This document shows positions 2 to 33,000 of a stretch of 35,758 bases of DNA, piece by piece (within the stretch, counting starts at the first letter, position 1; each line of letters opens with the position of its first letter). The notes beneath the pieces are model-generated. The model was not told the DNA's origin. It searched no databases and saw only the letters and a program-made list of their open reading frames with translations. Source of the DNA: Candidatus Omnitrophica bacterium UBA2593. GTDB taxonomy: Bacteria > Omnitrophota > Gorgyraeia > Gygaellales > UBA2593. Both the position numbers and the translations under genes were made by a program. Location of the stretch: positions 1 through 35,758 of the forward strand of contig DDKR01000153.1 in the NCBI GenBank assembly GCA_002340085.1. The letters are read 5' to 3'.

Positions 2-3000
2 GATAAAAATGATAAATTTACTTTCTTCGTCGCACCTACTTTGGATAAAGAGAGTAAGAAAGAGGGTAAAAAAGAAGGAATTACTCGGCCTGATTTTAGC
101 GGGGTTAAGATTAAAGTAGATAAAAACGGCAATGCAATCTGGCAAGGCCGAGCCTCTTTTTATCTTAGCAATTTCTCACCTTATTTTACAGGCTCAATTT
201 CTCAGGATTTAAGGGGTTATTCAGGTTCGGTTTCGGGTGGAAGAGCACCATGGGTGTTTATTTACAATGAGAAAAATGAAAAAATCGGTAATCATACTCT
301 TATGCCTGGTGAATTTGCCTTTGACAGGCAGGGAAATTTATCCAAAGGCGCTTACTACGATAGTCTTTGTAAGAAGGTAATTACTGCAGAGGAGTTAAGA
401 AGCAGGACCGCTGTTTCTCGGAAGGTGGATATCGGAAATTTGAAAAAAGGTGATAAGCTTACTACGACAGATGGTCAGGAACTCGTGGTAGTATTTATTG
501 AGGGTAAAATGACAGCCTTAAGAGACAAAGATAAAAATTACTATCTGTTCTTCAGGGACCGCCTTTATCCTTACAAGGAGGTAAAGAGACGTAGGGAGAT
601 AGCTAAGTTGATTGGAGAAAGAGTAGATATCTTTGACGATAAAAAATTTACAGAAACAGTTACCCGGGCTTTAGGCAAAGGAAAGATTTCTATTCTACCT
701 GACGGAAGCTTTGTTTCTACTAAAGAATTAATGCCGGGCGAGATACGCAGGCCGAATGAATTGTTAAAGCAATATGTAGATGATTTTAAGAAGGGCGCTA
801 TTAAGACAGAAGATAAAAATGTTGAGAAGGTTTATAAGACTATGGCGAAATTAGATGCAGAGCGTAAATTTTTTGGTCGGTGGGGAAACAAGCTCTCGTG
901 GGAGGAGTTAGCTAAAAATGTTGATCGAGAGTCACTAATTAAATTTATTGAACACCGAGGTTATCTGGAGACTTTAAAAGGTAAGGATAATAAGAAGAAT
1001 GCAAGTTTAGGGCCTTGTGTGAAGATACACGCCGAACTTGGTGAAGTTGCGAAAAAGTTAGGTATAGATTTAGAGATGGTTTATGTTGAGGGATTGGAGG
1101 AGCCTCATGTCGCCCTTTATGATCCTGAGAAAAGAAGGATAATCGATGTGACTTATCAGAAAGAATATCCAGATAATGCTATTATAAAATTTAGGGGTAA
1201 AGAGATTAGCTGGGGAGAATTTAAGAAGAATCATAAAGATAATTTTGAGGGATATAAACCTTCTGCTATTTATAGCCAACAACTAGCGCAATTTTATTTA
1301 AAGGTCGGTAATTTAGGAGAGGCAGCAAGATGGGCAGAGAAGGCCTATAGAGAGGATAAAAAGACTAAAGAGTTAGCAGATATCTTTAATAATTTAGGTA
1401 ATGCTTATGGCAGGAAAGAAGGACTTTTTGTTGAACCGAAAAGAGAATTTTTTCAGCTCTTACACTGTTATAAAAGAGCAAGGGAGTTATATAAGTTAGA
1501 GGGAGATAATGAGAGAGCTGCCAAACTTAGTGAGTTAATCAAATTTCTTGATGCACACAGCACAGTTCCTACTCTTCACTTTGACCACAAGAATGGCTGT
1601 TATGTGTCTCGGATAATAGAGGAAGAATATTCTCATAGGCCTCTGCCCAAAAAAGAGGAAGAAGGCTATCTAATTAGCCCTTTAATTAACAACTTAAAGA
1701 AAACACTTCCCGAAGGAGCAGAACTAGAACTTAATAGTAATGGTAATAGTAATGGTAAAGGAATGGAGGCATTCATTAGAAAAGAAGGAGAAAGATATAA
1801 GGTTCTTCCCGATTCTATAAAAGGAGCAGATGGTAAGGAGTATAGATTAGTTTGCAATGCGAAGAACGGAAAAGATATATATTTCTTTGATGGGGAGAAA
1901 AAGAAATTACTCCCAGAAGTTAAGGTAGGAGAGATAGGAGGAATGAACTTATGCTTAAAGACAGAAACTGATAGTAATGGTGTTGCAGGGATAGTAGAAG
2001 TCTTAGAAAGAGGAAGAGGCGAAAAGAAAGAAAGATTCAATGTTTTAGTTTCTATGAGGTCAGATGGAGGCAGCAATGCTGTATTAGTAGAAAATGAGAA
2101 AGGTAGGTATATTGTAAGCGAAGACGGAAGATTATCAAAGGTTAAGACTTATGCGGGAGGACTTATTATTGATGAGAAGGAAAGAATATGGAATTTAGAG
2201 GAGAAGAGGGAGGTTGTAAGAGAATTTGCAAGTCATAAGGCATCGGTGTTGCAAGTTATTAGTGAGTTGGTAGGGAAGGCAACTATGAAGGAGGATGGTC
2301 CTGTCGCTTCTCGCCGGCACGAAATTATCAGTAGATTAAATGAGCTAAGTGGCCTGGTGGGGAAGAGTAAGAGTAAAGAAGAATTTACTTCTGTAATACA
2401 GGAGATCCAGCTCTTTGAAAAAGTTCTTAATGCTGCAGATAAAGCACAAGAGAAGATGAAAGAGTCATGGGAGCGTACCTGTATGGAACGGGAGACAGGG
2501 ATTTCCTTAGAATCAGAGAGGTTAATGGAGGAAGGGGGAAGGCTTAATGTCTCTGCTATTGAGGCTATTTCATTCCTCTTAGAGAGAAAGTATTCAGAAG
2601 CTCAAAAGATAATGAACGATCCTCAGCTCCAGAAAGATTTGTGTGATACACCAATTAAAGTAGATTGGGATAAGAGTGGTGCTATCCAGCGGCTTAGAGT
2701 GGTACTTTGGGCTGCTCCTATATTATCAAAGGAGGGAGGTAATCTTCGTTCCCAAGCTATACAATTGAAAAAGGAAGCTATCCATTATTCGGTGGGAGGA
2801 TTTTTGGGGGTGCCAGTAGCTCTTGGTACCTATCTACCCGAAGGAGCGGCTAGTCTGGGTAGATGGTTTCGTCATCCGGTGAGATCAACACACGATGTAG
2901 TTGATGGTATTTATAACTTAGGCTCAGGGATATGGGGATTGGTTAAAAAAGAAGGTGTTGGTGGGGCTATTGGAGAGATAGCACGCCAGACCGAAGGGGC

Positions 3001-6000
3001 AATCAGGCAGGCAGATTCCTTAGATATGGCTCTCTTTGGTGCTGAACTATTGGGTGAGATTCTCGCTGCTAAGGGATTAGCCAAGGGATGTTCTATAATA
3101 GGGAATAGCGGCAAAGTAGAGAATTTTTTGGGAAGGGCAGGGAATTGGATAGTTAAGCCTATAGTTGAGTCTAGGAGAATACAGCAGATTTCGAGCACTA
3201 CACGTATACTTACTAATAAACGTATACTTACTAATAATAAAGTAGTTAATCTACTCCGTAATAAATTGCAAGTCGATAAGGTATCAAATGTACTAGGAAA
3301 AGCTGTAAAAGCTTCACCTGGGGTTCCTCAGGGAGTAATAAGGTGGATAGGCAGTACCTCTAATACTTACTCTTATATGCTTCCTTCTATGGTGGGAGTT
3401 GGTATTATCCATGACTGCTTCACGGGGAATATTTCTCTTAGCCAAGCAATATTCAAACAGTATGAGAATCTTCCCCAGACTAAAAGTCAGGCCTTAGGAT
3501 TTAGTGCGGCGTTTGCTTTAGGAGGAAAGATTTTTGGTCCTATTCATTCTAAGATTTCCTCTCTTTCTAAGATTTCCTCTCATACTTCTCAACTTTCTCC
3601 TACTGCTCAGTGTGCTGCTCAGCGTGTTGCTCAGCGTGTTGCTCAGTGGACGATCAAAACCACCTCTTTCTTGACGCTTAACCACGGCCTTCCTAATGCA
3701 GTTTCTCTACTTACTACCGGCCAACCGCTTTCCTTAGAGACAAATGCAGTGTTGTTAGTCTCCGGACTTATTGGTTGGGGTTTAGGTAAAGGAGTCTTTA
3801 TTAATTCTGCCAGTAAAATAACAGATATAGGGTTACTTCATAGCTTAGGAAGAGCAAGTCTTACTACCTTAGGAAATTTCTGTCTGCTCAATAGCATAGA
3901 TTATGCAGTCAATACAGTGATGCATAAGGTACAGACTGGCCAAGACTTGGGACTTGGAGGGCTAAAAGAAGTATGGTGGAGTAAACATACTTTGGGGAAT
4001 TTAGCTATTAGTGCAGGATTTGCTGGATTAGCTGAGATAGCTAGAGTATCTTATGTAGCAAAAGAAGTGCGCGAAGTTAAAAAGATAATAAAAGAATTTA
4101 ATATAATAAATCCAAAAGATTTTAAAGGTAATTTAGATAATTTGGTAACTGCTTTAGAAAAAGAAGGGATTTCTCCTCAGGTGCTAGAGAGGTTAGATAA
4201 GTTTAAGGTAGTACATGGAGGAAAGGAAAAGAGCTTATTAGATTTATTAGGGGAACAAGGAGTAGTTCCATTAAAAAAGTTAAGGATAGTAGGTACTGAA
4301 TATAGTGCTACAGATGCTCTCAGGACATTGAGGATTGACGAAAAGATATGGGGGGAATTAGTAAATAATCCCTCATTAAAAAGTGCTATAAACGCATTTC
4401 GGAACACCAAGGTAGCAGGAAACAATCTTTTTGATAGAGTAATGGGCTTTGTCAGAGATTCAGGAGCTTTACCTACTACACAAGCTTTAGAACTTGCTAT
4501 AAGAAATAAATTGAACTTGAAGTTTTTTGATTGGACAGCCAAAATATATTCTTCGAAATGGACAAGAGGAGGTGCGTATGTGTTGACAGGTACAGGAGTT
4601 AATCTAACCATAAAGACAGCAAGAAATTTCTTCTCTGAAGATTCTTCTACCAAAGGAGATCTCTTTAAATCTTTAAGAGAAGCTTTTACTCTGGGAAATC
4701 TAACTGAAGGAGCCTTCTTTGGTTTAGCCGCACTATATCCTCTTCAAAAATTCCAGGTCAAGATACCAACACTACCCGATGGGTCCCTAAAACCTGATTG
4801 GATAAGCCGGGTACTCGAAAAAGGAGCAAAGCTTACTCAGGATAAAGGAAGATTCGGACAACCTATTGCTCGTCTTTGTAAAGAAAAGTTATTAGCGAGA
4901 GATCTGGAGAAAATATTGAAGGCAGATAGTTATGTTTGGCGCATTTCTCAATGGGGATTTTTTAAGAAATTTTCCTATGGTGCAACAATAGGAGCCCTGG
5001 GAGAAGGTATTGGTTACACTATCGATGCTTATCGAAGAGGTGATTTCTCTTTATATGAGTTGCGTAACTCCTCAGCTAAAGGAGGTATTGCTGGAGGGCT
5101 CATTACCTGGTGGTTAGGAGGCCTTTTGGGGAGTCTTTCTTCTAACTTTTCAGCAATTACCGGAAGGAGAGAAGAAGAGATTATTGCCTTACATCGCTTC
5201 AAGTTAGGAGGTGGAGCCCATACTGGACCGAGTTGGCTCTATTACCAGTCCTTAGCCGGAGCATTAGACTGGCTTTTAGTCTCTCCTCTCTTTACTATTG
5301 GAGGAAGTTTTTATAATGGTTTACTTTCCCAATCAGGATGGGAATTTAAAGATGCTTCTGGTAAGCAAATTAAAGGTTGGTTGATTACTGGTGATGAACG
5401 CCAAGGTTTTCATCACTTAACTCCACAAGATTTAGTGCTCTCTTCTATCCAGGGACCTTCTTCTGGTAAATGGATGAAGCCACTCTTTCGTTTTACCGGG
5501 GTACAGAGCTACAGATATTCTTTTCAAGGAGGAATAGTAGAGAAATTAGATAGGTATAGAAGAGTAGTCAAAGAATATTTCTCAAAGGATTGGGGACGAG
5601 GATCCCAAGGAATTACTTGGTCAGAAGCAGTAGTAAAGCAAATCTTTGCCGGGATGGAACCTACTAAAGGGTTTGTTTCTTTTTTGCGTTGGTTTGATTC
5701 CTCAATACTTACAACACCTCTGGTAGTTAAGACCGCTGATTTCGGCTTAAAAGTTGCCGAGAAAACATTGCTTTCTCCTAAAGGAAGAGGTTTCTCTGAT
5801 TTTAGTCGGAATTGTCTCTCTTTTATCGTCCTCTTTGCTAGAAGCCATCCCTCCCACCAGGCAACGAAGGAATTGAGGGCTCTCTATCAACAGTACAAAG
5901 ATGCAGAGAGAAATATCCAGAAGAGTAATAACGCAATGGGTGAGAAATCTAAGGTTCTTGCTTTAACCGCACTCTCCAGAGATATGCGTATGCCTTTAGA

Positions 6001-9000
6001 GAAAATAATTGAGAATTCCCAAAGACAAAAAAATAACCAGGCTCTTAATAAGGCCTTTTTAGAATACGCCAGACCCCAGATTGAAAAGATTGAGCAGGTT
6101 TTACAACATTTACAATATGGACAATATGAAGGAGTAATAAATGCCTATAGAAAAACCGTAAGAAAAGGAAAAGTTTTTGCTTCTAAGGAAGACTTTATTA
6201 AGTTTGCAGAAGCAAGAGGCCTATCTCTATCTAAAGATAAGGCTAAAGAAGCATTCTATGCCTATAATTCTCGTTTGGTATTTGAGAGAGCTAAGGAGAT
6301 TGCTAAAGGAGAAAACCCAACCCCGAGAGATATAGAGAAAGCAATTAGACAACTAACGATCAGGAGTGAGGCAAGGGAGGCTTATCTAAAAAAACCTCTT
6401 CATGAGAGAATAAACGAAAGAGGCGAAGGTATCAAAAGAGGTACACGCACTACTATAAAGAATCAAGTAGAAGAGGTATTTATAGAGCAGGCAGCAAAGA
6501 TATTTGGAGAGAAATATTTTGGCACTAAGGATTTAACAAAAGTTGTAAATTCCATCAATGTAACCTACAATTTAAAGAATCACCTCTTAACAATGATTAA
6601 AGAGGGTGATTTTACTACTCCAGAACTTCTTTTTGGTGGTCAGGAATTAGCCAATGTAATAAGAGATAGTATTAGACCAGCTCTCTCTAAAAGACTACAG
6701 CGTCTCTATGATTTAGCTCTTGATATAGGAGGAGCAAAGGATATAAAGGGTTTGCTTAATCCTTATATAAAGGAAGAGGCTGAGAGGAGATTATCTAAGA
6801 TTGATCAAGAAGCACAAAGATTAGCAGGAAAAGGAGGAAGACTTCTGCCTAATCAGCAAGATTACGAAAAAGCAGTAAAAAACTTGTCAAAAGATTATTT
6901 GGGAGAAATTAAGCAAGAGGTTAGGCAGATGAGGGAAGAAAGAAAGTCTAAGGGGGAAATAAAACAAGCAATCCAACAAAAAAAGAAAGATATAAAGGAG
7001 ATGGGAATAGGTTCTCTAAGAGAACAATCTGAATTGGCAAAAGATATCCGGGAAGCTAATTTAGACTCAAAAGCCCTTTATCAAAGAAGAATGGATGGGC
7101 TTAGGAGAGAGATAAACCAAGAAGCAAAAGACATACATAAAAAAAGAACAGGCTGGAAGGCAAGATTCAGCTCGCCATCAGATGAAGATATTCAAAAAGC
7201 AACAAAGAGGGTCTTGGATAGGATACTACCTCAAAAATTACCAGGTGAGATTGATTTAGGAGAATTATATGATACAGCTTCTCAAAAGGTTTTTGGTGTG
7301 GGTTTATCTAAGATAAGAGATTTTCTTAAACAGAAGCCATCCCAGCTTAAAATTATACGTGGGAGAGCTGAAAATCGAGCAAAGCAGGCTTTAGCTAAAA
7401 AATATGGTTTTAAGAATTTTGAGGAGTTTAAAAAAAGCTTTGAAGCTCTTAAGGGTTCTACCGACGGAGTTGGAAAATCAATATCTCTTTTAGCTTATAA
7501 TGTTAAAGATTTGGCCTTCTGGTTTGAACCAATCTTACGCACCAAAGCAATTACTGAAGGCGATCTCTTAACTTTGGCTGAGAATATTTATAGTGAATCT
7601 TTGCTTATAGATTTACCATTAGATAAATTGAGTAATCTTCAGAAAAGAGTTGAGGAGAGAAAGAGACTTTTAGATAAACCAAGTCCTATAGAGGATAGGG
7701 ATTTTGCCTTTTTAAAGATAAATGACCTTATTCCCAGAGCTGCTAAATGTAAGGTCAGTTCTTTAAAACAAGCCATTGACAGAATCATTGAGTTTTATTA
7801 TCGTTCTCATCCCAAGGATGCGGCAGAAATTGAAGGTAAAAAAATAGGAGATACCATTAAGATATCTAAGGTGATAAATGGGAAGAGAAGAGATTTTAAT
7901 TTTATTCTTACCCAAGAAATCAAAGAGAAAGTAGGCACCTACTACAGTTACCTCGAAGGTCAAATTTTTGGGTTCCTTTATCAACGGCTTACTCCTTTTC
8001 AAAGAGATAGGTTAGAGAAAGAATTGCCTAAAGAGCCATCTAAAAAGATGATGAGTTTTGGTCAGGTTCTCCAAAAGGCAGGATTGAATAGAGAGATACT
8101 TCCTGCTTATTTTCAGGAGGTAATTGTTTCTTCAAGGTTTAGAGAAAGTTTCTCTCCTACTATTAAGGCAATGAGATTGATATGGGAATTGGGAAAAGAT
8201 AATGGAAAGATAAACAAGACAGAGGTTCTCAAGACAATAGAGAAGAATTTATCTAAGAAGGAACAAGGAGAGGTTAAGGATTTCTTAAATGAGTATATAG
8301 AGGTTATCTCAAAGATCAATATCTTAATCTCTACAGCGGGAGGTGAGAGAAGAGGTGAGATTGAAAGAAAGATTGCCCAGATAATCTTTAGTTCTCAAAC
8401 AAAAGATGCTAAGAAGATGGAATTCAATGTAAGGAGGGAAATCAGGAGGCATTTTGCAGATGAGAAACTCCAAGGCATAGAAAAGGATAGTAATTATAGA
8501 AAGAGGCGAGGAGAAATATGGAGAGAATTTAAAGAAGAATGGCAAGGCAAGGGAGGCATTAAAGAGCATTTAGAGAGCTTGAGTAGAAAAGCTGGAGCGA
8601 TTAAAGGTAAACATTCAGAATTTTCTGATTTAGCTACGCTTGGAGAGTTTACTGCTTTATATTCAGACATTAAGAGTTGGGGGAGTAAGATTAGTAGTCC
8701 TAAATCTGATAAGGTCTCAAAGATAGAAGCTAAAATTGCCCAAAAGAAATTAGATTTTGTTTTGGAAGGAAGGATTACGGAAGCCGAATTAGAGCGATCT
8801 TTAAAGAATTTAAGATTACAAAAAGAGGCTTATCAGGCTCAGGAAGAGGTGAAGTCGAAGGAGCGTGGATTTTTGATAAGTGAAGAATACCAACCTTCCA
8901 AAACTACTTTTAAAAAACTTAAGTCATTATTTATCAATGGGTTAAAAGGAGGAAGTTACAAGAAGCGACTAAAAAGATTTGCGCAGGCAAAGAAGGCACT

Positions 9001-12000
9001 GGAGCTGTCTTCAGACAAAGACATAGTTAAAAATTGGAAGAGGTATCAAGATAGTCTTTATTCTTTGAGCGAAAAGATAGAAGCACAATCCTTAATTGCA
9101 GAAAGAGAATTAAGACTAGTTGGAGAAAGGCCTTTGCCTAAGCCAGAATGGTTAGAGAAAATTGATAGGGTTTTAGAGACCTTAGAAAATCCCAGGAGAG
9201 AAAAGTCTTTAAAAACTTCTCTAATAGATGAGGCAACACGTAAAGAATTAAGAGATGTTTTGAAAAAGATCGAGGTTAAAAAAGACCAAGGTGAAGAATT
9301 TCAGGTAAAGATAAATGGAGAGGAGATTAGGTGCAGGATTGAATTCGAACATATAAAGAATGAAAAAGGTAAGGTTATAAAAGTTGTTAAGCCAGATACT
9401 TTTAGGATAATAAGTGGAGGAGAAAATTTAAACCAGTTTTTCAGAGATGCGATTTCTCTGCATAAAGGAGATCCTATACGAGTGGTAATGATAGTGAGAG
9501 GTGTTATTGGTAAGATTATTAGAGCAAGGGGAGGCAACCTTAAAGAATCGCAGTCTACAAGGAATATCCTTAAAGTCATCCGGGAAGCAAATATTGAAGA
9601 AGTGATGGCAAGTGGAAAGACGCTTTTGGGTACGATGGCTTTAATCTCTAACCGCTTTCTTAGTGACCGAGGAATATCTCTGTATCTTACCAAAAATACT
9701 CCTTTAGTAAAACAAGTCCTTTCAGAAAACCAGGGATGGGTGCAGTTATTTGGCTTAAAGCTTAAAGATGCAGATAGCTTGGTCTCTAATCCTTCTGTCC
9801 CTACCACTTTTATCCACCAAGCCTTCAAAGATAAAAATACTATCTTTGTGGGAAGTTATGAGCGTTTTCCTCATCTTTTAAATCGGCGTATAAATACAGA
9901 CTTCTTAAATCGCCAGAGAATAATCAAACTTCTCAACTTTTTGGCTAAGAGTAATAACTTAGTAGTAATCGATGAAGGACAGAATATCTTCCTAAATCAC
10001 TTAGAGGCGATTGTTGGTTCAGGCCATGAGAGTCTTTCTTCCTCTTATCCTAAGTATAAACTTGTATGGGAGAAGATAAGACCATTGATAAATAAAGATA
10101 TTCGAGAGATTACCCTCAAAGAGGCAAAAGAGACTACATTAAAAGAAGGAGTATCTTCAGGTCTAACCAGGGGTATAGATAAGGCAAAATTAGGCTTTGT
10201 GCGCTTCAAAGATGGTGTCTATCTTACCCCTGAAGCAGAGAAATTTATTCGTCAGAAATTAGGAGGAGAAAGATGGCTTTTATCTGGAGAGATAAGGAGT
10301 ATAGTGGAAGCAATCGTTACCGGTGGTAACCGTATTGGTTTTACTTTTGACAGAAGAGTAGTAGTTTCTTCTAAGACCGATGGCTTACAAGCAGATATGG
10401 TCTTACATAATAAATCATTGATGGTCGCTTCTGCTTTAGAAAAGGCAACTCGCGAAGGAATTAAACTATCCGAGATAAATTGGAGGCAATCCTATGCAGG
10501 AGGAAGTACTTTAGTTTCTTCCTCGGCATTTGAATTACTCACTGCTTTAGGAGGAAGAAAATCAGTTCTTTCTGGAACAATTACACCTTTAAAGTCTTTG
10601 ATAATGCTGATAAATAGCCGGCAGATAGAGACAAATACCCACTATGCCGATTTAGGTTTAGATCCTATAACCAAAACATTCTCTTATGGAATAAGGAAGA
10701 ATGGGGAATTTGAGCCAAGAACAAAGGTAAAACTCATTGATGTTGATGTGAAGAATCAGTCAATTTATTCTGCCCTTACAGAAAAACTAATAAGAAACAA
10801 AAATGATAATAAAACCAAGTTTATAATGGTAAGTGAGGAGGGAAAACCTGCCTTAGTGAGAACCCTTAGAGAAAAAGGGCTTAAAGTAGATATCTATGAT
10901 AACTCTGTAACTGAATCAAGGAAGAGAGAATTAGTCCGGAGAGTAAAACAAGGAAGAACGGGTAAGATAATTATTGGGACCTTAAACTTAGTAAAGGAAG
11001 GACTTAATTTTGGCGAAGGTATAGATATTTACTTTGCTGCGCCCATTGTTGAGTTATCCACTGCTCTCCAAGGATTCGCCCGTAACAATCGTATTAAGAA
11101 AGGGGATATGGTTTATTTCTTCTATTCCCCCAGAGAGTTGAAAAACTTCTTAATCCAGAACAAGGGAGTAAAAGAATATATTCGGCTAACAGGTGGAGAT
11201 TCTTTAGAGGGGCCTCTTCAGCGGATGCATAATCCTTCTTCTCTTTCTAAGGAAGATTTAGTAAGACTTGTATTTAAAGTTCAGGAAGCAATAAATCTCT
11301 CCCATACTGCTTTAGAGAATTTAAATAAAATATTAGAAATCACTTACTTAGTCCGGCCATTAGAACGAGTGATGAGAATGTATGCTCCTGAGACTAAGGA
11401 GTATGCTTTCTTAGTAAAGGTTTATCGCCAGGTAATCTTAGATAGGGATTCTGATTTCTATTCTACTTTTGCCTTTAAAGATATCGCTACTCCTCGTGAT
11501 ATGGCTTATCAGTCCTTATTGAGTATTTCTCATCGGGTAACTACCCTTCTGAATATCCTGAAAGGTGCTTCTAATCAGTTTATGCTCAAAGGTTCTAAAT
11601 CAGGTTATGAGCCAACTATCTCTAAATTAAAAGTTTTAGCCGATGAATCTCCTTTTATAAAGAATAAACCTAGCCAAAGGATAATGGAAAGTCTCTTTAA
11701 TGCCTGGGGATTTAGAGAAGATGTCTTAAAACACAAATTTAGTAAGAGTGGTGATGGCAATAAGTCTCCTCCTAAATTCAGTGATTTAAGGTCAGTAGAT
11801 GATGCAGTTTCCCTTGCCAAATATCTTGCTGAAAACCTTCTTCTTCCTACCATCAGAACCTCAGCCAATGTTTCAGAACCTTTAGTAAAAGCAAACAAAC
11901 AGATAACTGTAACTACCAGAGTCTTAGAGAGCGAGTTTGCCAAACAAGGAATCTCCCTATCTCCGCAACATAAGACAAAAATCGAGAGGGCCTTAGATGG

Positions 12001-15000
12001 TTATACTTCTTATACCTTTACTACCCAACGGCTCTTTACTACTATTGGAGAAATAGTCGGGGACTTAGAAAAGGAAGAAACTTATGCGAAAAATAACTTT
12101 TTAAAAGCACTAAATGCGATTTTGAATCCTTCTTCAAATTTTTCTTCACAATTAAATACTCAACTATCAGAGAAAAGTAGTCTTTTAACTGATGCTTCCA
12201 TTGTGGTTAAAGAAATAGATGAAGCTATCAGAGTAAATAAGATTGAGCTATCCTCTTCTCAAACCCAAGCTGTGCAAGATGTCTTAGCTTTAGCAGTTAA
12301 TCCCGTAGTAGACCTTGGTGATGACCATGAGCCTGTTTCATACGGATATAAGAGGTTACACCGGATTGCCCAAGGAAAGGCTTGGATTGAGTATCATCTC
12401 GGCTCTACGCAGAGTAAAGATTTCATCAGTAGGATGCCTTACTATGCTCAGGAATCGAGTGCTTGGATAGGAAGATACCTGGGAATAAATGAGAGTTGGA
12501 ATCCAGTTTTATTGAATCCGGTCTCCTGGATTCCAATCTCGAGAATAAGGAGATTTGTCCTTACCTATAAAGATCGGGGAGTAGAAAGTCTCTACAAACA
12601 AGCTTTAATAAATCCCGTAAAGTATGAGAGAAGCTTAAGAGATATTTCTCGGTTTATCTCTCCTGGACGACCTGATTACGCTTCTATTTTCTCCTCTCTT
12701 GTTCTTCCATCCGCATTTTTATCTTCCAAAGTACTTACTAGCTTAGGGTTAGGAGCAACCCTTTTAAGTTCTCCATTTATACTTGCACCTACAGCAGCTC
12801 TCTTAGGTTTAATTCCCGCTCATCTTTTAGCTAAATACTTAGCCGAACACTGGGGAAGAGATGATAATTTTGCCCGCATAAGTAAACAGTTAGATAATAT
12901 CACTGATAATAGGGAGTTAAGAGAATATCTCTTATCTTTGCGTTTAGCAGCCCAAAGAGCTCGGGAAGAAAATCTCAGCCAACTTTCTCAGTGGAAGAGG
13001 GTTCCTCAGTCTTTGCGTCCTCTTTCTCCTTTTGGTTCTTTCTATACTAAATTAGATAAGAGAGAGTCAGCAAAGAAGCCTTTTGAAGCCACAGTAGCTG
13101 AATACTATACTCCTGCTTCTTATGCTCCTCGATTATCTACTACTGAAAAGATAAAGAGAGTTCATGAGTTTTTTAAGGGAGTAGATAGCAAGAGAGCAGA
13201 GAAATTTAATTTAAAAGAACTTATTGAATATCTCCAACTTTCTCCCGGAGAAAAAATCCATAAATTCAATAAGTATTTTAAGCTTGATTTTACAGAGGAG
13301 TGGAAAGAGATCCAGGAAAAATCAGAGCAGAAAAGATCTTCCTTAGCTACAGTTAATCTAATAAAACAGGGACTCTTTAATGAAAAAGAGAGAAGGTTTT
13401 CTCTTCTACAGGTCCTCGCTGCCACAACTGAACCTATCAAGCAGGCAGATTTCAATTTTATTACAAAGAGTTTTCAGCTCCAAGGTAGACTTTCAGAATC
13501 TAGGCCTAAGAACGATAAGGAGATCCAAACCAACCAAGAGATCATTAACTCTGCTTTAGAAGAGATTGTTTCTTTAGCCGACAAACTTAGTTTCAAACAA
13601 AGAAGAGAAGAGTTGTTAAGAGAAGCAAACACAGGTGAAGTAATTAGGAGGATAAATAAGATTCTGGAGGGTAATGAAGATTTTGGGAAAAAACTCCAAG
13701 CCATATATGAACTTTCTGCAGATGAAATTTTCAATTCATCAGAGCGCCAAGAAGCTTTAGAATATTTGTTACCAAAGCAAGCCAACCAATTACCAAATCA
13801 AGCCAACCAAAAGGTAGATTTATCTTCTTTAGAGCAAGCCCTGAACTTTCTTAAACAAAGTCTAAGATATGCTCAAGAAGAAGCAGAGAAGAGTATAAGT
13901 GATGATATGGTAAAAGCAGTATGTGAAAAGATGCCGGGGAAAAAACTCAAAGATCTTAAAAAAGAGTTAGAAGGTGATTTAAGCTACTCTATCTATAGTA
14001 TTCTTACCTCACAAAGTTCATCTGAAAAACCATTCCTTAAGAAGATTTCTCAGATCGAAGCTTTAGCTGAAATTACTGCTTCTGATTGGATCTATCACTT
14101 AAGAGCAAAACAGGAGATCCATAACTCGCTTAGAGAGGCTTCGAAAGACAAAGAAAATACCACATTAAAAAATATCCCTCAAGAAGATTTCCTCAAGTCC
14201 CTCACTGAAAAATACTACATCTCTCCTCAGCAGATCTCTTCCTTACGCCAGCTCTTCAGGGATTTTAAACATCTGCTTGAGATGCAATTCAAAGCCAAAG
14301 ATGAGAAGGATAATATTAATCTCTCTTTCTATGAAAAAGGTTATTATGAGGTTAGCCTACCACTCATAGAAGAAGTATCTAAAGAAGTTACTGGTTTGCT
14401 TAAGGATTGGGTAGAAGGTAAGAATTTAGATAAAATTTGCTCTTCTTCTGAAAAATTAAAGGAATTTCCTTCTCTCATTGAGAAGACCGCAGTCTTAAAG
14501 GAAAATTTAGCTACCTATGAGAAAGAATTAGGTATTCCTCATCAAAGAGCAATAGATTTCTCTAAGCAACCTCAAGAAGCTTTTGAGCTTTTAGGAATAA
14601 GAGGAGTCGAGCTAAAAGTAGATGAAAAAGTAGAAACAAGAAAGCTTCTTTTAGATAAACTTAATACCGCAATCCCCTTACGTGCCCAAGGACTCCTTCC
14701 TTTTGGAATAAATCTTTTACAAGTTTCTACGCCCCAAGAAGACCCTATCCTTCAAGAGATAGAAAGAGATCTCAGCAGTCCTATTCAACAAGACATTCAA
14801 AATAAAGTCTATGAGACTATCCTTCAATTCCCCCAACTAAAAAAGTATCTAAAAGATAAAGTCGATGATCCTCTGAGTGTAGATAAAGCGATGGAGAAGG
14901 TCAAAGAATTGTTCTCTGAAGGCAAGATCTCTTTAAAACTTGCTTCTTCTCATATCGATACAGTAAAACTCATTGATCGGACTACAGAAGGTAAGGGTTA

Positions 15001-18000
15001 TGAAGTATGGGTTCCTTTGGAAAGATTTCAGATTACTTTAGGTGAAGGAGGCAGATTCGGATTTAAACTGAGAGATGTAGGAAGATTAGAGGCTCGACAC
15101 GAGATATTAGGACACTTATTCGCTAAATTTTTAGGCATACCCTTAGGAGAGTCCAGAGATGCAATCTGGGGGTATAATGCTACTGAACAGGTAGCCTTAA
15201 CCCTTACCTCTGTCGATGCTATAGAGTGGGCGAAAAAAGGAAGAAGATTAACTCCTGACCAGATATCCTATATCCATGCAGTTACAAAGATCAGTCCAGT
15301 AACTCGACCTTCAAGATTGAGGTTCTGGTTAGAGAAACGTAAAAATTGGGATAATGAAAAAGATGCTTATATGGATTCGATGCGGTTATTTTATTTTGCC
15401 CAGGCAAAAGGTGATGATTCTCTTGCTGAAATTCTTTCCCATAAACTGTTAAAAGGATTTGGGAAAAAAGTTTCTCGTTTACCTTCACTTTCTTTTATAA
15501 GAGAGTATATTAACAGAAGAACTTCTTTTCTACCTCGACAGGGTTATAAAGCCTTCTCCCAAGGAGCAAAGAATACACTTGGCAAAAATGAAGGTACTAC
15601 ACCTATCGATGGAGAATGGATGAAATTAGAACCTCCTTCTTTGGCAAGATACTACTCTCTAAATTACCTTTCTTCATTCCATCCCCAAAAATCTGAACCT
15701 CCTTCTCTATTAGGTCCAGAAGGAGAAGATTCTCTCTATAAGGATTCTCTCTACTTAAATCAAAAATTAGATGAGATAGTTAAAGAAAAAGGAATTATTG
15801 AAGAAGTACTCAATGATGAAAATTTTAAGAAAAGAGTAAGAGAGAAAGCAGGTTATTATAGCCCCACAACATCAGCCTATTATGTAGAAACAAAAGGCAC
15901 CATCTTATACCGCGAGGGAAGAAATGCTTGGATAAGATTACACGAGATAAAACATGCCTTAGATGACATAGATTCTCCATACGGAAAACCCTCCCAAAAA
16001 CTAATAAATTTTTACCGTGAACTAAAATCCTTTTCTTTTGCTTTTGGACAGGGTGGAGATTTAACCGAAATAGAGGAGTCTTTAAGAAAATACGATAACC
16101 CCTTAGAGGACCTATTAGATTCACTCCTCTGCGAAGGAAAAACAGAGATATTTAGAAAAGACTTGAGTATAATTTTGAGACGTGCTGAAAAAAACCCTTG
16201 GTTTGATCAGATTAAGATCAATGGGTTTAAACAGGAGATGGGTTGGTCGGAAGGGAAATCGTCTTGGTCTATAGAAGAACTAAATAAGCCAGAGATTTTA
16301 AACCTTTTTGACAAGAGCGAGTTTGGTATAGCCACAGAACTCACTGCCTACATGTTCAATGGAGTAATCGAAGGAGATAAGGAGATTATTAAGTTTACTG
16401 ACTTCTTCTTAACCTGGCCTGAAGGACAAAAATTATGGAGAGATCACCTTGAGAAAATTGGCTTAGGTAAGATTGCTCAACTCCACATCGATCAAGTCCA
16501 ACAGAGAAAGAAGAAAGAAACTTCCTCTTCACCTTTTGTTCAATTAGGTATCCTTCAACAAAATCCTACTATAGGTATAGATAAGAATGGTAATGTCTTT
16601 GGTGGTGGTTATCCAGTTTGGGGACCATTTTATAATGAGGTATTAGAGCGATTAGGACAAATAACTCCTAAAATAGATAGGTATAGATCTTCTTCTTCAT
16701 TGTGCGAGGGGAAAAGAGAGAAGATTTTACTTACGGCTTTGGCAGGGATGTCCCCAGAAAATTTTAGAATTAATCCTCAGGATGATAATGATTCGGTGGG
16801 AAGAATTAGCTCTCAAATACCCACATCTGCCTCTCCTGTAGCCTTTAATAGGATTCTTGATTTGTTTGGAAGATATATCAATTCTTTTAAAAATTCTTTA
16901 ACTCTACCTGGCTCTTTAGCTAAGAAGGTGTATGATAGGTATAGGTTGGGTAAAAATAATAATGTAGAGAATATACTGAAGCAAGTTTTTAACAATCAAT
17001 TCTGGAAAGGAAAAGTAGAAATTCCAGAAAATTTACAGCGCCCCATTCTTCCTAATTTTGAATTTACCAAGATAATTCCAAATTTCCAGGAGTTGAAATT
17101 ATTAAATCTTACAGAACAAATAGAACAGATGAACCAAGGATTACTGTCCCTTTTTTCCTCTGTAGAACAAATGAATCAAGGAGTACCGCCTCTTCTCTCT
17201 TTGCGAATAAACCCTGATTCATTAGCGCAAAAAATAGCAGAGCTCAACATAGCAGAACTTAACAGAATAGCAGAGCTCAACATAGCAGAGCTTAACAAAA
17301 TAGCATCGCAAATATCGCAACAGAAGCCTATCTTCTACAGGAATTATATATCTTTTGGAAAATCTCCTGAAGAGAATGATGAAGTTGATTTCTATTCATT
17401 ACTATCTCAAGATAGATATTTTGGTGAAGGGTCCATTATTTCTAAATCCAGCATTCCTAAATTCGAGACTCCCGAAAGACTCAGGTTAAATACTACTAAA
17501 AGACAACTCCTATTTCCTGATTTTTCCTCTGTTACTCTATCAGGTCCTTCTTCTGCACATCATCTCAGTATCTCTGAACCAAAAAGAGGAACTAATTGGG
17601 CAAAGAGGAGCATAATAATAGGTTTACTTTTACTCTCTTTACTCCCTCTGAAAGATACTCCTAATAATAAATCAAACCTTTCGCCTTCTCTACTAATGCC
17701 TCCTTCCGTTGCTGATACCATTAAGCCCGAAGATATTATTTATACTGTTAAACCCGGAGATAGTCTCTGGAAACTTGCTAAGGAGCATTTTGGAGATGGT
17801 AGTGATTGGCGGAAAATTTTAGAGCTCAATCCCCAATTAAACGGTCGCTTAGGTAACCAATTAACACTAACTGGTGAGGAAAGAATAATAATTCAACCTG
17901 AAGAGCCAATTAAAATGCCCTCTCCAATTGGAAAAAGCTCAGTAGGTGTGGCATTTGTTGCCTCCTCTACATACATAGAAGTATCATTTACAGAGCAGTT

Positions 18001-27000: not shown

Positions 27001-30000
27001 TGTTGGGTTTGTTAAGGTTGGTTTGGTCTTTAATCCTCAGCAAAACTCAAGGAAAGATGAGCTTGACGAGACTGGAGTTGGAGCTGAGATTAAAGAATTA
27101 ATTGATAAGTTTGGGAGAGTGTTGGAGGAAGTTCTAATAGGGAGAGGAGATAAATATTCTGAAGATATTTTTGCTGAGCAGTCTGAGGTAGCTTTATTGG
27201 TTCAGTCTACAAAGCAAGTAGTAGAGATTGCTTGTTCTAAAGGTAAGACATATATCTTAGCTTTAGCAGCTCTAATCAAATACCGTACAACGGGTATTCC
27301 TTCCTTGGCCTTTGTTCCTGCTTTTGGTTTAGGTTTAGATGCCTTTGAGAAACACAGGATACATCAGATATTAGGTAAGGTTGATCCTAATTTTAAGGTG
27401 GGTTTGGTAGATTTTGCTGAGGGAAAGGGTAAAATCTATGATGGGGATGGCGAATGGAGAGAAGTTAGTATAGCTGAAGTTTATAGCAAGTGTGGTTTGG
27501 TCTATAGTACAGTAGAAGATACAGTGCATAATTATTTAAGCGAGCATCTATCCCGAGAAGATAGAGACTTAGCTTTAATTACTCGCAAATGGTGGGTATT
27601 CTTTGATGAAGTGCATTTGACTTTGTTGGGTGAGCGCTTAGGAAACCCATTTGTTATCTCTGAGATGACCAAGCAATATTCAGAAGTTGTAGAAGAAGCC
27701 AATGATATAGCAAGAGAACTTTATGAGTTAGTGGAAAAAAATGGGGCTCTTCTGAAGAGCGAATATCATAGGATAGATGAGAAGGATAGGAAGGTAAAAC
27801 TTACTAGAATAGGAAGTAAATTTGTAAAAGAAAGACTTAAAAAGACAAAGTTATTGAGAAATCGGGGTAATTGGAAAGACTTTGTAGATACTGCCTTATG
27901 TGCTTGGTTCTGTTATAAAGAAGGTAGAGATTATCTTCATAATCCTGGTTTACCAGAGGGAGAAGAGATTTCCATCATTAGAGAGAGTGGAGAGAGAGGA
28001 AAAGAATCTTACAGCCATGGTTTACATCAGGCAATTCGTGCTAAACACGGCTATAACCCATTCAGAGATGGAAAGACTATTGCCTCAATTATGTTAATGG
28101 GTTTCCTAAGTGATCTGGAAGTGGTAGAAGGTTACTCAGGAGTGAGCGGGACCATAGATAGAGAAATGGCAAATGCTTTAGGATTAGGGGTTCAGATTAT
28201 TGAAGAAAAAGAGAAGCCAAATATCGTTCAAGAAGGATTTATTCGGATGTCAGTAAAACCAGATATTCAAGGATTGGTAGAGATTGTAGTAGAAAAAGTT
28301 AAGAGAGGACAGCCGGTTTTAATAAGGGTAGAAGATATTTCTCGGGTTGAAAAGGTAAAGGAAGCTTTAAAGGTAGAAGGCCTGGAGATAGAAGTGAAGA
28401 GTTTAGATGCCAGGACTGAAGCTGGTGAGAGACAGAGAATCCTTGAGAGTGCAGGTAAACCAGGAGCAGTTACTGTTGTTACTGCTGCGGGCAATACAGG
28501 TATAGATATCAGTCTTATGGAAGAAGCGATTGAGAAAGGCGGTTTGACAGTTATAGCGTTTGGCCTCTTGGAAGACAGATTGCAAGAGATACAACTGATG
28601 CGACGGGCAGCAAGGAGGGGAGAACCGGGAGAGTTTATTGTTTTCGGTTCACTTGAAGATAGAGTAGTAAGGCTTTATGCTAAGGATTATATCCCGGTGG
28701 CTAAAGGAATTTTAGAGAGAGCAGCAAAAGGTGATAGAAAAGCTCAGATTAAAGTTAGAAAAGTGGTTATGCAATTGCGTAAGACAATTAAAGATGCGAG
28801 ACTTCAACAGATCAGAAGGAGAGTTAAGATAGAGCAAATGATTACCCAAGCTTGGCAGAGGCGTTGTAATTTGAGAGAGAACATTAAGAATGGTTTGCTG
28901 GTAGAGGCTGTGGCGAAACTGATCGGTGTAGAGTTGAATGAGGAGAAGAAAGAGCAATATCAACAAGCAGCTTTAGAATTACTAGATAGGTATTGGGTTG
29001 AGTTTATTGCACGGTGCGATGAAGCAAGATATCAGCTGCTCAATAGATTTGGTTATGATTACACAGAGTGTCAAGGTATTCTGCAATTTCCAGTTGATTC
29101 GCAGTATATGAAAGAGGTAGGTAGATACACCGACGAGTTTATGTATTATACAGAAGCTAATACTTTCCTCTATATGTTGAAAGAAGCAGGAAAGAGTTTA
29201 GATGATTTGAATCTTAAGAGATCCTTCATTTACTGGTTTAAGAGAGTAAGGAATTTTGTTGTCCAAAAAAGTCCAGTTGTTATAGCTGCTGTAATTTTAT
29301 CCTTTGTAGTCTATGGGTTATACCGTCTGAGTTTTGGTTTATTTGGGCTTATCTCAACTCCTACACAACCCTCTGGTTTTGCCCGGGTTTTGATTGATTT
29401 TATTGTTAGTCTGTCTGCTCTTAATCAGGTATCATTGGTTGCAATCATAGTGATTGCGATGGTCTTTCTCTTATTCATTAATCGCAACCTTATCTTTCCG
29501 GCTTTAGCTAAAGACAGAAGCGAAAACTCGTTATCCGATGCTCTGTTTGGAATAAAGACAGAAAACCAGAATTTGACTTCATTCTCCCTCGCAGTTTACA
29601 AGAAGGTCTATCCAGTTATTGCACAGATTAGTACAGGAGTATCTCTAGTTATATTCGGCTTGTCTATTTTCACTGGTAGTAATTTGCTACTGAGTACAGT
29701 AGCATTTATCTCTATCTTCGCTTTAGGACTAGCTTTAATTACTTTGAGTGATTCAGGGTTAAAGGCATATATAAGACAAAATAGGATTTCTCTGCCATCT
29801 ACCTTGTTTGGGAGTTACGCTTACTATTTTGCTTTTAGTATCTTGGTTTATCTGGGAGTAATCTTTGGATTAGGTTATTTTGGCATTACTCCTGTGGTTA
29901 TGGATATGAGTATCTATTTGAGTATAGTTATCTTAGGGGGTGGGCTCCTTGCTTATTTCATCTATATGATGAATCAGTATTTGGATAGACGGTTTAATGA

Positions 30001-33000
30001 TAAACCCAAGGAAGTAGAACGAGATGTCGCTTTTGCTGGCATATTAGGAAGTGGTGCTTTGGCGGGCTTACTTATACATCTCCAAGAGATGGAATTACTT
30101 ACCCCTAATACTATTTCTACTATTTACGCTTCAATTTGGCCGGCGGTTCAGTTAACTGTAATATTAATGTTTCCACTCGCCTTGGTTGTTTTAGGTAAAC
30201 TTATTTTTGGTATTACGCGTGCTCAGATGTTGGGTGAAAAGATAGTAGAAAATGACGGTGTGGTTTTGAAGAGAGGTTTTTCGGAGAGTGTAAGGGAAGT
30301 CTTAAGATTAAAGCATATCAAGACTTGTATTGGTGTGGTTTTACGGGCGTTGATAATAAACATTATTCCTACCAGTATTATTTTTGGTGGTCTGCTTTTC
30401 TTATGGAAGATCTATACTGATACAAATATCGCCTTGGGGCTATTAAATACAATTACTCCTTACTCTTTAATAATAGCAGGAGTTGTTTTGATTATAATTT
30501 TAGCAACTTTAGCATTTAGTCCTAAAAAGGTAAGTGTAGCAACTGGTACAGTGTTAGGTGTGGGTGCAGTAGGGGGTATGACTATGGTTCAACAACAGAC
30601 AGGGCAAATGATCGAATTTAAAGCCTATTGTGCTGAACTCTTCGGAATTTCTAGAGAAGAATTTAAAGATCCGCGGGTAAGGATAGCCGTAGAAGAAATG
30701 AGAAAAGAGATAGAAAGATTAAAATCAGCCACTAATGATTCTTCTAAGTCCGGAAGAACTACTACAGCTGGAGGTACGCAAGGTAATCAGACTACAAATG
30801 ATCCAGATAAGACTGAATCATCTAAAGTTAACTTACAAGAGCCTCCAAGAGGGGGAAAGATTGAACCACTGAAAGAAGGTCCAGGTAATACCTTCTCAAA
30901 AGAAAATCCTCACAATAAATCTCCACCAAAATCTCAAAGTAAATCCTTCCTACAAAAACTCACTTCTTCTCTCAAAGAGAGTTTGAATTCTTTGAGTAAT
31001 CTTTTCATACCTTCTCTTAATGCTGAAGAAATAGATAACTTCCACAGCACCAGAGTTTATACTGAGAATACCACCCCAGGAGTGGAAAGAGAAGATTGTC
31101 TTTCTTTACAAGAGCCAGTTAAATGGCATCTTCCAATTAAAGTTCCTTATACTCTAACCAATGAAGGTAAATTTGGTGCTTCCAGAGATAGAGATGAACT
31201 TAGTGAACCAGGTTACGGTAAGCCAGATGAGATACCTCATACTGGCCTTGACTTCTGTGTTCCAAAAGGAACGCCTATATATGCAGCTTTAGAAGGCGTG
31301 GTTATCTTTAGCGGTGAACTTAATGGCTATGGAAAGACAATAATCATCAAGCATTCAGAGGGATGTTATACCTTATATGCTCATAATCAGGAAAATTTAG
31401 CTAGAGAAGGAGAGAAAGTCTCTCAGGAGACAGTGATTGCTAAAGTCGGCCGGAGTGGTAATGCGGGACAAGTTGGAGAGATGCTTCATTTTGAAGTAAT
31501 AGAGTCAGAGGTTGAGCTAAGTAATTATCAGGGATTAAGAGAGACATTGGCTACGGGAAAAGCAAAATATCGCAATCCTGAGGAGGTATTGGGATTGACT
31601 ATTTCTGATCGGGTAGTGGAAAATGGTGATTTAACCTCAACATTAGAAGAAAAAGCGGAAAGCTTGAGGGAACTTTTGAATTCAGGAATAGAATATTACA
31701 ATCAAGGAGATTTTAAGACTGCTATAACGATTTTCAGTGAAGGCATTAATTTAAACCCTTCCTTCTCTGAGGGGTATTTTTGGCGAGGAGCTACTTATTA
31801 TCATTTAAAGCAGTATTATGAAATGATAGAGGATTTTAAAAGATCTGAAGAGGTTAAAGAGACCAAACGGGAAATAGTATCTTCTTACACAAAAGGAGAA
31901 ATTCTTATATATAATAGTGGTAGAGTTCTTGAGGGAGGAGATCTCCAAATCAAATCAGAAGAGTTATTTTCGAACTATTTATTTTCGAGTGTTTTAATTG
32001 AAGATGCTAAAAAATGGATAGAGAGACTAGAATCAGCTCGTCTTCAAAGTAATATTTCTAAACCAGAGGAGAAAGAAGGGCCGGTTATTTTCGTATTGGA
32101 TAAAGGTGTGAATGCAGATCTTGTTGGGGGTTCAATTAAAGGTATAGGGAATAAAGGAGATTTAATAACCTGGTTAAGTCATGGCACTTTTGTAGCAAAG
32201 GTTATTCGTGATCTGTCTTCAGCTGAGATTATATCTATTGACATAACGAGACAATCAAAGACAGGCCCCCTTTTCGTTACAGATACAAAGAAGATTTCCC
32301 AATCTCTGATTCAGATACTCGCCTATATGAAAGAGAATCCCAGGGTAAAGGTAATAGTAAATATTTCTTTCAGTGGATCTTTTGGAGACTTCAATGATCT
32401 TTTAGATGTAGTCTTAATGCAAGCTATTATCCAACAAGGTGGAGTTATTGTTGCAGGCGCAGGGAATGAGGGCACTTCTTTATCTCGAATATCCAGGTAT
32501 CCTGTTTGTTATCCGGGTGTTATTGGGGTAGGCGCGATTAAAAAATCAGGAAACAAGGCCGATTATAGCAATTGGTCTAATGGCCTTCTCGTTGCTCCTG
32601 GGTGGATTAATGGGAGTGAGGAATGGAAAAATTTAACCAAAGAAGAGTACGGATGCGATATTGAAGAAATATATGGTACTTCCTTTAGTGCTCCTTATGT
32701 TGCTGGTCTAATTGCTAAGATATGCGAAGAATTTGGGTTCACACCTCAGCAGGCATATAAGATTATTGAAGAGACTGCAGAGCCTTTAAAAGTTTTTGAT
32801 AATTCCCCGAATTATTTCTTGAAAAAAGTTGATCCTTTCCGAGCATTAAAAAGAGCAAGAGAAGAGAAATATTCCAAACCCGCATTGGAAAGGGTCGGAT
32901 CATTATTTAATTTTCTCTTTCCACCACCTCTTTATGCTACAGGAGTAGATAATTCAACTACTACAGAACAACCTAATCTTAATTTCAAACCCGTATCGGA

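Follow-up and report, generated by a model that had tools for sequence, protein, structure and literature searches.

The window considered here (35,758 nucleotides, the whole of contig C114, DDKR01000153.1) comes from the genome of Candidatus Omnitrophica bacterium UBA2593 and reads as a single open frame of 11,919 codons that shows neither a start nor a stop. The frame encodes a segment of a giant membrane protein with two internal ATPase motors: copy 1, which is the subject of this analysis, and copy 2, which starts ~17.5 kb downstream of copy 1 and is a homologue of the translocase ATPase SecA. On balance, copy 1 appears to belong to the lineage of SecA-like motors in giant proteins, although strongly diverged, and would act on polypeptide in cis; a superfamily 2 (SF2) motor of other ancestry is its principal competitor. 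The initial annotation of this DNA had described copy 1 as a SecA-type motor embedded as an internal domain in unrelated sequence. The embedding is borne out: the two-lobe motor is internal and flanked by kilobases of other sequence, and its SGKT, DEGQ and QGFARNNR motifs all lie within 9560-11150 and are conserved in 10 homologues. Copy 1 is composed of the following elements:

9554..11206, forward strand: motor core of copy 1, two RecA-like lobes plus an inserted domain (amino acids 3185-3735; motif conservation, and hhalign against SF2 and SecA profiles)
9611..9622, forward strand: Walker A motif SGKT (amino acids 3204-3207; from the translation; G and K present in at least 90% of the family)
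9971..9982, forward strand: Walker B motif (motif II) DEGQ (amino acids 3324-3327), followed by NxxxxxEAIVG; D, E and Q invariant in 10 sequences
10019..10549, forward strand: inserted domain of ~177 residues between motifs II and III (amino acids 3340-3516; position and size from alignments), where SecA has its preprotein cross-linking domain (PPXD)
10571..10579, forward strand: motif III, SGT (amino acids 3524-3526), after GGRKSVL; T invariant, S and G in 90%
10649..11206, forward strand: second RecA-like lobe (amino acids 3550-3735), carrying motifs V and VI; by Helicase_C and hhalign
11207..11401, forward strand: helical extension past lobe 2 (amino acids 3736-3800), with the family-conserved pattern 'AVxLALHLxEEINRSHxA'

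The envelope of the family hidden Markov model (HMM) on copy 1 spans amino acids 3152-3801. Motif V of the second lobe is EGLN (amino acids 3666-3669), whose E-G pair is invariant in 10 sequences, and motif VI is QGFARNNR (amino acids 3690-3697, nucleotides 11069-11092), with Q, R, N and R invariant. In the 10-sequence alignment the A-I-x-G of EAIVG after DEGQ is also invariant, and the DEGQ region lines up by eye with 'DEVDSILIDEARTPLIISG' of the host genome's own SecA. The extension after lobe 2 is predicted, with low confidence, to form a helix of ~43 residues. Pairwise identity within the 10-member copy-1 family is 22-49%, while the catalytic columns are invariant or nearly so; conservation of the catalytic motifs at this level of identity indicates selection for catalysis. 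Copy 1 has the features by which SF2 proteins are recognized, namely a Walker A motif of the form GK[TS], a Walker B motif of the form DExx, and a second lobe with motifs V and VI. To judge from its sequence, it certainly belongs to the SF2-type ATPases with intact motifs, and it would be expected to bind and hydrolyze ATP.

Relatives of copy 1 are few. A full HMMER search with amino acids 3101-3800 against 1.84 billion representative proteins returned 10 relatives; every one is a piece of a giant protein, and none is a SecA or a known helicase. When 401 Omnitrophota genomes were searched with the copy-1 family profile, four, the host included, contained strong matches over the full length; weaker matches (1e-8 to 1e-18) lay in ~10 further giant open reading frames (ORFs), and matches to the C-terminal lobe of ordinary helicases of 700 residues were at chance level. 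No copy-1 relative turned up in two metagenome scans or in a viral scan, additional homologous-protein searches with the region as query or with family alignments returned none, and no second copy-1-type motor was found elsewhere in the host genome. The copy-1 family is small, fast-evolving, and confined to giant proteins.

Most Omnitrophota giant proteins contain divergent SecA_DEAD and preprotein-binding domains, and these domains have been proposed to help export the giant protein that carries them (West-Roberts et al. 2023, bioRxiv 10.1101/2023.11.21.568195). Self-export, which the initial annotation put forward as a possible role beside substrate translocation, is thus an idea already in print for such proteins. 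It is with these embedded SecA-like motors that copy 1 gives its best whole-motor match. In profile-profile comparison by hhalign, the 10-sequence profile of the copy-1 family aligns with embedded SecA-like motors with a probability of 97.7% (E = 1.4e-12) over 449 collinear columns that cover both lobes and the insert, and with canonical SecA with a probability of 88.4% over 416 columns, likewise collinear; DEAD-box, RecG, and SNF2 profiles each match one lobe of the motor at a time. With an extended profile, consisting of the copy-1 family plus 9 intermediate relatives, the values are 99.1% (E = 1.2e-18, score 163) for the embedded SecA-like motors and 97.7% (E = 2.3e-12, score 109) for canonical SecA, compared with sums over the two lobes of 139 (DEAD-box), 122 (SNF2), and 115 (RecG). 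Lobe 2 matches four SF2 families with hhalign probabilities of 90-97%; its scores with the extended profile are 86.2 for SecA-like motors, 65.2 for SNF2, 60.9 for DEAD-box, and 59.2 for RecG. The motif III region scores 30.2 with the SecA-like profile, at the equivalent position (P = 7e-4), versus at most 19.6 with the others.

The position of the insert points in the same direction as the whole-motor match, and its size is right for a PPXD. Among SF2 proteins, an insert between motifs II and III is characteristic of SecA, in which it is the PPXD; in Hef, RIG-I-like, and SNF2 proteins the inserts come after motif III. The signals obtained with the copy 1 insert are weak, but they are to SecA profiles only, fall at collinear positions, and include an element with the order 'beta-hairpin, V-x-L-T, helix'.

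A bridging sequence, L028, combines features of the two groups. L028 is a fragment of a giant ORF of another genome (G070:C17, amino acids 465-908 of the open frame). It matches the copy-1 family HMM in Walker B and the insert (1.4e-13) and in lobe 2 (1e-9), and it matches the embedded-SecA HMM in motif III and lobe 2 (37.3 bits, 5e-14). The SecA-typical stretch in L028 is 'IRIVDASSDVDMVSITAEAGRSGRITIVNERGWTG' (pattern 'VDA..D....I.AEAG..G.ITIVNERG'). DEAD-box and RecG HMMs gave no match to L028, which is a useful intermediate for tracing the divergence of these motors.

Several results weigh against a SecA origin of copy 1, and the first group of these comes from HMMER-level searches. The SecA models of Pfam (PF07517, PF21090, and PF01043) and of NCBIfam, applied with E-values up to 10, match neither copy 1 nor any of its 10 relatives. 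The initial annotation had named profile searches that place the region in another SF2 family, with no specific similarity to SecA, as the outcome that would count against its SecA assignment; taken literally, the Pfam, NCBIfam, and PDB searches of copy 1 and its relatives, which find DEAD and Helicase_C but no SecA, are that outcome. The best relevant Pfam match of copy 1 itself is Helicase_C (E = 0.017-0.02, and as low as 1.1e-4 in relatives), and Pfam DEAD does not match it; in a Pfam scan of the 10 family members, five had Helicase_C and two had DEAD, the latter with a best value of 6.8e-8. The intermediate relatives, likewise scanned with Pfam, yielded no SecA match above threshold. A phmmer search of the PDB with copy 1 gave a chance match and no SecA structure, and the family profiles gave weak single-lobe matches (RecQ1, Mfd, and CshA), again with no SecA among them.

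A second group of adverse results lies within the profile comparisons themselves. Taken one lobe at a time, copy 1 is no nearer to SecA than to DEAD-box or RecG proteins. The summed DEAD-box lobes (139) outscore canonical SecA (109) and fall only ~24 short of the SecA-like score, a modest margin, and lobe 1 by itself is closest to DEAD-box proteins (63-74), followed by SecA-like motors (49-54) and canonical SecA (40-41). When the insert alone is compared with the PPXD, P is 0.0038 for the embedded form and, with the extended profile, 0.0023 for the canonical form; at a probability of 9-13% the similarity is not significant. The extension past lobe 2 has no detectable profile similarity to the SecA scaffold, and there is no sequence evidence in copy 1 for a scaffold, a two-helix finger, or a wing domain.

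Structure models of copy 1 give a mixed picture. AlphaFold models of copy 1, built from input alignments of two sequences, have mean values of the predicted local distance difference test (pLDDT) of 46.3 and 49.6, both poor; most values in lobe 1 and the insert are under 50, which also counts against the SecA assignment, and lobe 2 is the sole part of the models with a pLDDT of 64-84. The comparison with SecA structures suggested in the initial annotation put SecA first with one model and among other families with the other, at pLDDT values too low to be decisive. In a Foldseek search with the 800-residue model (pLDDT 46), 29 SecA and SecA2 entries rank first (E-values from 1.3e-7 to 5.7e-5, with TM-scores of 0.15-0.21); with the 561-residue model Hef comes first and SecA, MDA5, Dicer, and SNF2 entries are interleaved with similar E-values and TM-scores of ~0.2, a further point against SecA. 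Taken over both models, the fold comparison leans at most slightly towards SecA.

Copy 2 provides an example of the published SecA-like motors within the same frame:

27047..29194, forward strand: copy 2, a SecA-like motor with nucleotide-binding domain 1 (NBD1), PPXD, NBD2, and part of the helical scaffold (amino acids 9016-9731; by Pfam, NCBIfam, and PDB)
29255..30520, forward strand: hydrophobic helices clustered immediately past copy 2 (amino acids 9752-10173; Kyte-Doolittle scan)

The prediction of a second, better conserved copy ~17 kb downstream of the first proved correct, and Pfam, NCBIfam, and PDB searches agree that it is a genuine SecA homologue. Copy 2 matches P-loop_SecA (4.8e-17), SecA_PP_bind (2.5e-10), and SecA_DEAD (3.4e-7), all above the Pfam cut-off, the NCBIfam SecA and SecA2 models (1e-30 to 1e-44), and Thermotoga maritima SecA in the PDB (7.6e-32); these matches make its predicted assignment as a SecA homologue unambiguous. 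The host genome also encodes a housekeeping SecA, on contig C109, to which copy 2 is 24% identical. The alignment of copy 2 reaches residue 686 of 778 in M. tuberculosis SecA2 and 673 of 762 in TIGR04221, so at least the first scaffold helix is kept (amino acids ~9570-9731, nucleotides 28700-29194); the SecA-like domains of giant proteins have been described as having no scaffold and no wing (West-Roberts et al. 2023, bioRxiv 10.1101/2023.11.21.568195).

In a tree, copy 2 groups with other embedded motors outside the clade of canonical SecA (support 100), and its branch is 3.76 substitutions per site long; of the two motors the tree covers copy 2 alone, since the divergence of copy 1 precludes a meaningful joint alignment with SecA and SecA2. 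The terminal branches of the embedded SecA-like motors measure 2.4-3.8 substitutions per site, and evolution at this rate makes the loss of SecA signatures in one lineage plausible. Direct BLASTP comparison of copy 1 with copy 2 detects no similarity. In 383 of the 401 Omnitrophota genomes copy 2 has SecA-like matches, for the most part to the housekeeping SecA.

Copy 1 lies in a conserved cassette:

7559..15736, forward strand: conserved cassette of ~2,700 residues that includes copy 1 (amino acids ~2520-5245; BLASTP collinearity with relatives)

By BLASTP the cassette is collinear in P0001, P0002, P0003, L022, and a 40,119-codon ORF of another Omnitrophota metagenome-assembled genome (MAG). 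At its end, ~1,250 residues past copy 1, is a strongly conserved HExxH block ('RHEILGH...LGIPLGESR...WGYNxTE'; nucleotides 15090-15225, amino acids ~5030-5075) that is common to four giant proteins and may be a metallopeptidase-like domain. Pfam gave no match on the cassette flanks or on the HExxH block. More HExxH motifs occur in the window frame at amino acids 5313, 7509, and 11545.

The 40,119-codon ORF is the only relative from a named genome, a 'Candidatus Omnitrophota' MAG (isolate MFD03726.bin.2.139), in which the homologous frame is complete and uninterrupted (L008-L019, G001:C10, CAWDSS010000010.1, 459489-579845, minus strand). Collinearity with the window is confined to amino acids 1629-5229 of the window frame, and the sole motor detected in this ORF with SecA, DEAD-box, RecG, and SNF2 profiles is of the copy-1 type. 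A second ORF, of 6,179 amino acids, sits 40 kb from it.

The two motors differ in their membrane setting. A Kyte-Doolittle scan finds no strong transmembrane (TM) segment across amino acids ~1340-4240, the stretch that holds copy 1, and this segment of the giant membrane protein is probably cytoplasmic. The TM element nearest to copy 1 is a hydrophobic hairpin at amino acids 4244-4277 (nucleotides 12731-12832), which the window shares with P0003 but not with P0002 or the 40,119-codon ORF; its absence from two relatives marks it as a lineage-specific insertion. Copy 2 is directly preceded by a TM segment (amino acids 8976-9004) and directly followed by the cluster of hydrophobic helices. Copy 1 has no adjoining conserved membrane domain and copy 2 is clamped between TM segments, and for this reason the role of copy 1 probably differs from that of copy 2. 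Elsewhere in the frame, two nearly exact copies of a hydrophobic module, 'EMVFVANGVSVGVLTSRMAP.TDPIA...', lie at amino acids ~7100-7200 and ~7780-7880 (nucleotides ~21300-21700 and ~23340-23740), and there is a second repeated pair at amino acids ~8130-8190 and ~8530-8600.

The gene itself extends beyond the window. The 1.3-Mb host genome (162 contigs, 86% complete) has further contigs that are open from end to end, C155 (8,071 amino acids), C38 (4,997), and C3 (3,584), and C24 (2,612), C78 (2,398), and C30 (1,860) are also single frames over their whole length; with several contigs open in this way, the real gene or genes must be much longer than the window frame. The giant gene or genes of the host genome are split across many contigs, and their sum is well above 30,000 codons.

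The assignment of copy 1 as SecA-type, made in the initial annotation, finds support in the whole-motor hhalign comparison, the position of the insert, and the intermediate L028, and finds none in the Pfam, NCBIfam, and PDB searches, which return no SecA match. Weighing these results, a diverged SecA-like motor seems the somewhat better bet. Copy 1 would most likely have descended from the SecA-like motors already known in giant proteins, of which copy 2 is one, and would have kept the SecA layout (lobe 1, insert, motif III, lobe 2, helical extension) while losing recognizable SecA signatures. Its substrate would then be polypeptide rather than nucleic acid, and it may work in cis, so that parts of the giant protein are moved, unfolded, or inserted with its help.

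A less probable explanation, although one that deserves serious consideration, makes copy 1 a helicase or translocase tied to SecA by the SF2 superfamily alone, with an unrelated insert and a nearer relationship to the DEAD-box, RecG, or SNF2 type; as part of the giant protein it would then have RNA or DNA as its substrate, or serve as an ATPase switch that depends on RNA. The HMMER-level matches, which are to DEAD, Helicase_C, RecG, RecQ1, Mfd, and CshA only, favor this explanation, as do the proximity of lobe 1 to DEAD-box proteins in hhalign and the second Foldseek search, in which Hef is on top and MDA5, Dicer, and Rad54 stand amid the SecA entries. There is also precedent among giant proteins of the phylum: a 14,273-amino-acid frame of another Omnitrophota genome contains an SNF2 domain (L112, G035:C48:24021-24806; Pfam 7.8e-30), which indicates that giant proteins embed SF2 motors besides SecA-like ones, and the giant ORF L031 has a DEAD/ResIII match.

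Against an SF2 motor unrelated to SecA stand a best whole-motor match that is SecA-like and collinear through the insert, and an insert that precedes motif III rather than following it as in Hef, RIG-I-like, and SNF2 proteins. L028, moreover, joins a copy-1-type insert to a SecA-like lobe 2. The copy 1 motifs DEGQ and Q..R.NR differ from the DEAD and HRxGRxGR of DEAD-box proteins, and a Pfam search of the conserved cassette found no nucleic-acid-binding domain.

More speculative is a version of the SecA origin in which copy 1 represents a new SecA-derived family that has moved off the membrane channel. It might be an unfolding or threading engine in a cytoplasmic cassette with an HExxH peptidase-like end, feeding the giant polyprotein, or neighboring segments of it, to its own processing or export machinery; this is improbable at present, but if true the arrangement would parallel the unfoldase-protease pairing of AAA+ systems with an SF2 motor as its engine. 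It is very unlikely that copy 1 is a decayed duplicate that has lost its ATPase and serves as a structural spacer only, as its extreme divergence from all known families and the low AlphaFold confidence could suggest, since Walker A, Walker B, and motifs III, V, and VI are near-invariant at 22-49% identity and copy 1 lies within a cassette conserved over ~2,700 residues.

Of the published clues to how bacteria synthesize, fold, export, and process proteins of 10,000 to >40,000 residues, built-in SecA-like motors are the chief one. Their occurrence in Omnitrophota giant proteins is already published; what is new here is a rare motor family that has no Pfam or NCBIfam SecA match and lies in a conserved cassette. 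The general published picture of giant proteins is not changed by copy 1, but Pfam-based counts of the motors in such proteins may be too low. Being a well-delimited domain of ~650 residues that can be expressed and whose catalytic residues are clear, copy 1 also offers a means of addressing the question of polypeptide versus nucleic acid.

Among known systems, the DEAD-box and RecG helicases share part of the sequence of copy 1 and differ from it in arrangement. It has the generic SF2 motifs in common with them, and its lobe 1 is nearest to DEAD-box proteins, but it lacks the DEAD-box signatures DEAD, SAT, and HRxGRxGR and has the ~177-residue insert before motif III instead of adjacent lobes. 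With canonical SecA and SecA2 it shares the order of lobe 1, insert between motifs II and III, lobe 2, and helical region, and the hhalign alignments are collinear over 416-422 columns with probabilities of 88-97.7%. Copy 1 has DEGQ where the Walker B of SecA is DEVD, and EGLN as motif V where SecA has GRGTD; unlike SecA it is not free-standing, and it has neither HMMER-level similarity to SecA nor a detectable scaffold, two-helix finger, wing, or zinc-binding tail.

The closest known counterparts are the SecA-like motors of Omnitrophota giant proteins. Copy 1 differs from these in having no Pfam or NCBIfam SecA match, in an insert with no significant similarity to the PPXD, and in the absence of an adjoining multi-helix membrane domain such as that next to copy 2. 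It is also rare, the copy-1 type being strong in 4 of 401 Omnitrophota genomes versus 383 of 401 with SecA-like matches to copy 2. The shared features are embedding in a giant multi-TM protein, fast evolution, and the presence of a housekeeping SecA alongside; copy 2 is a member of this published group, and it is there that copy 1 has its best profile match, with probabilities of 97.7-99.1%.

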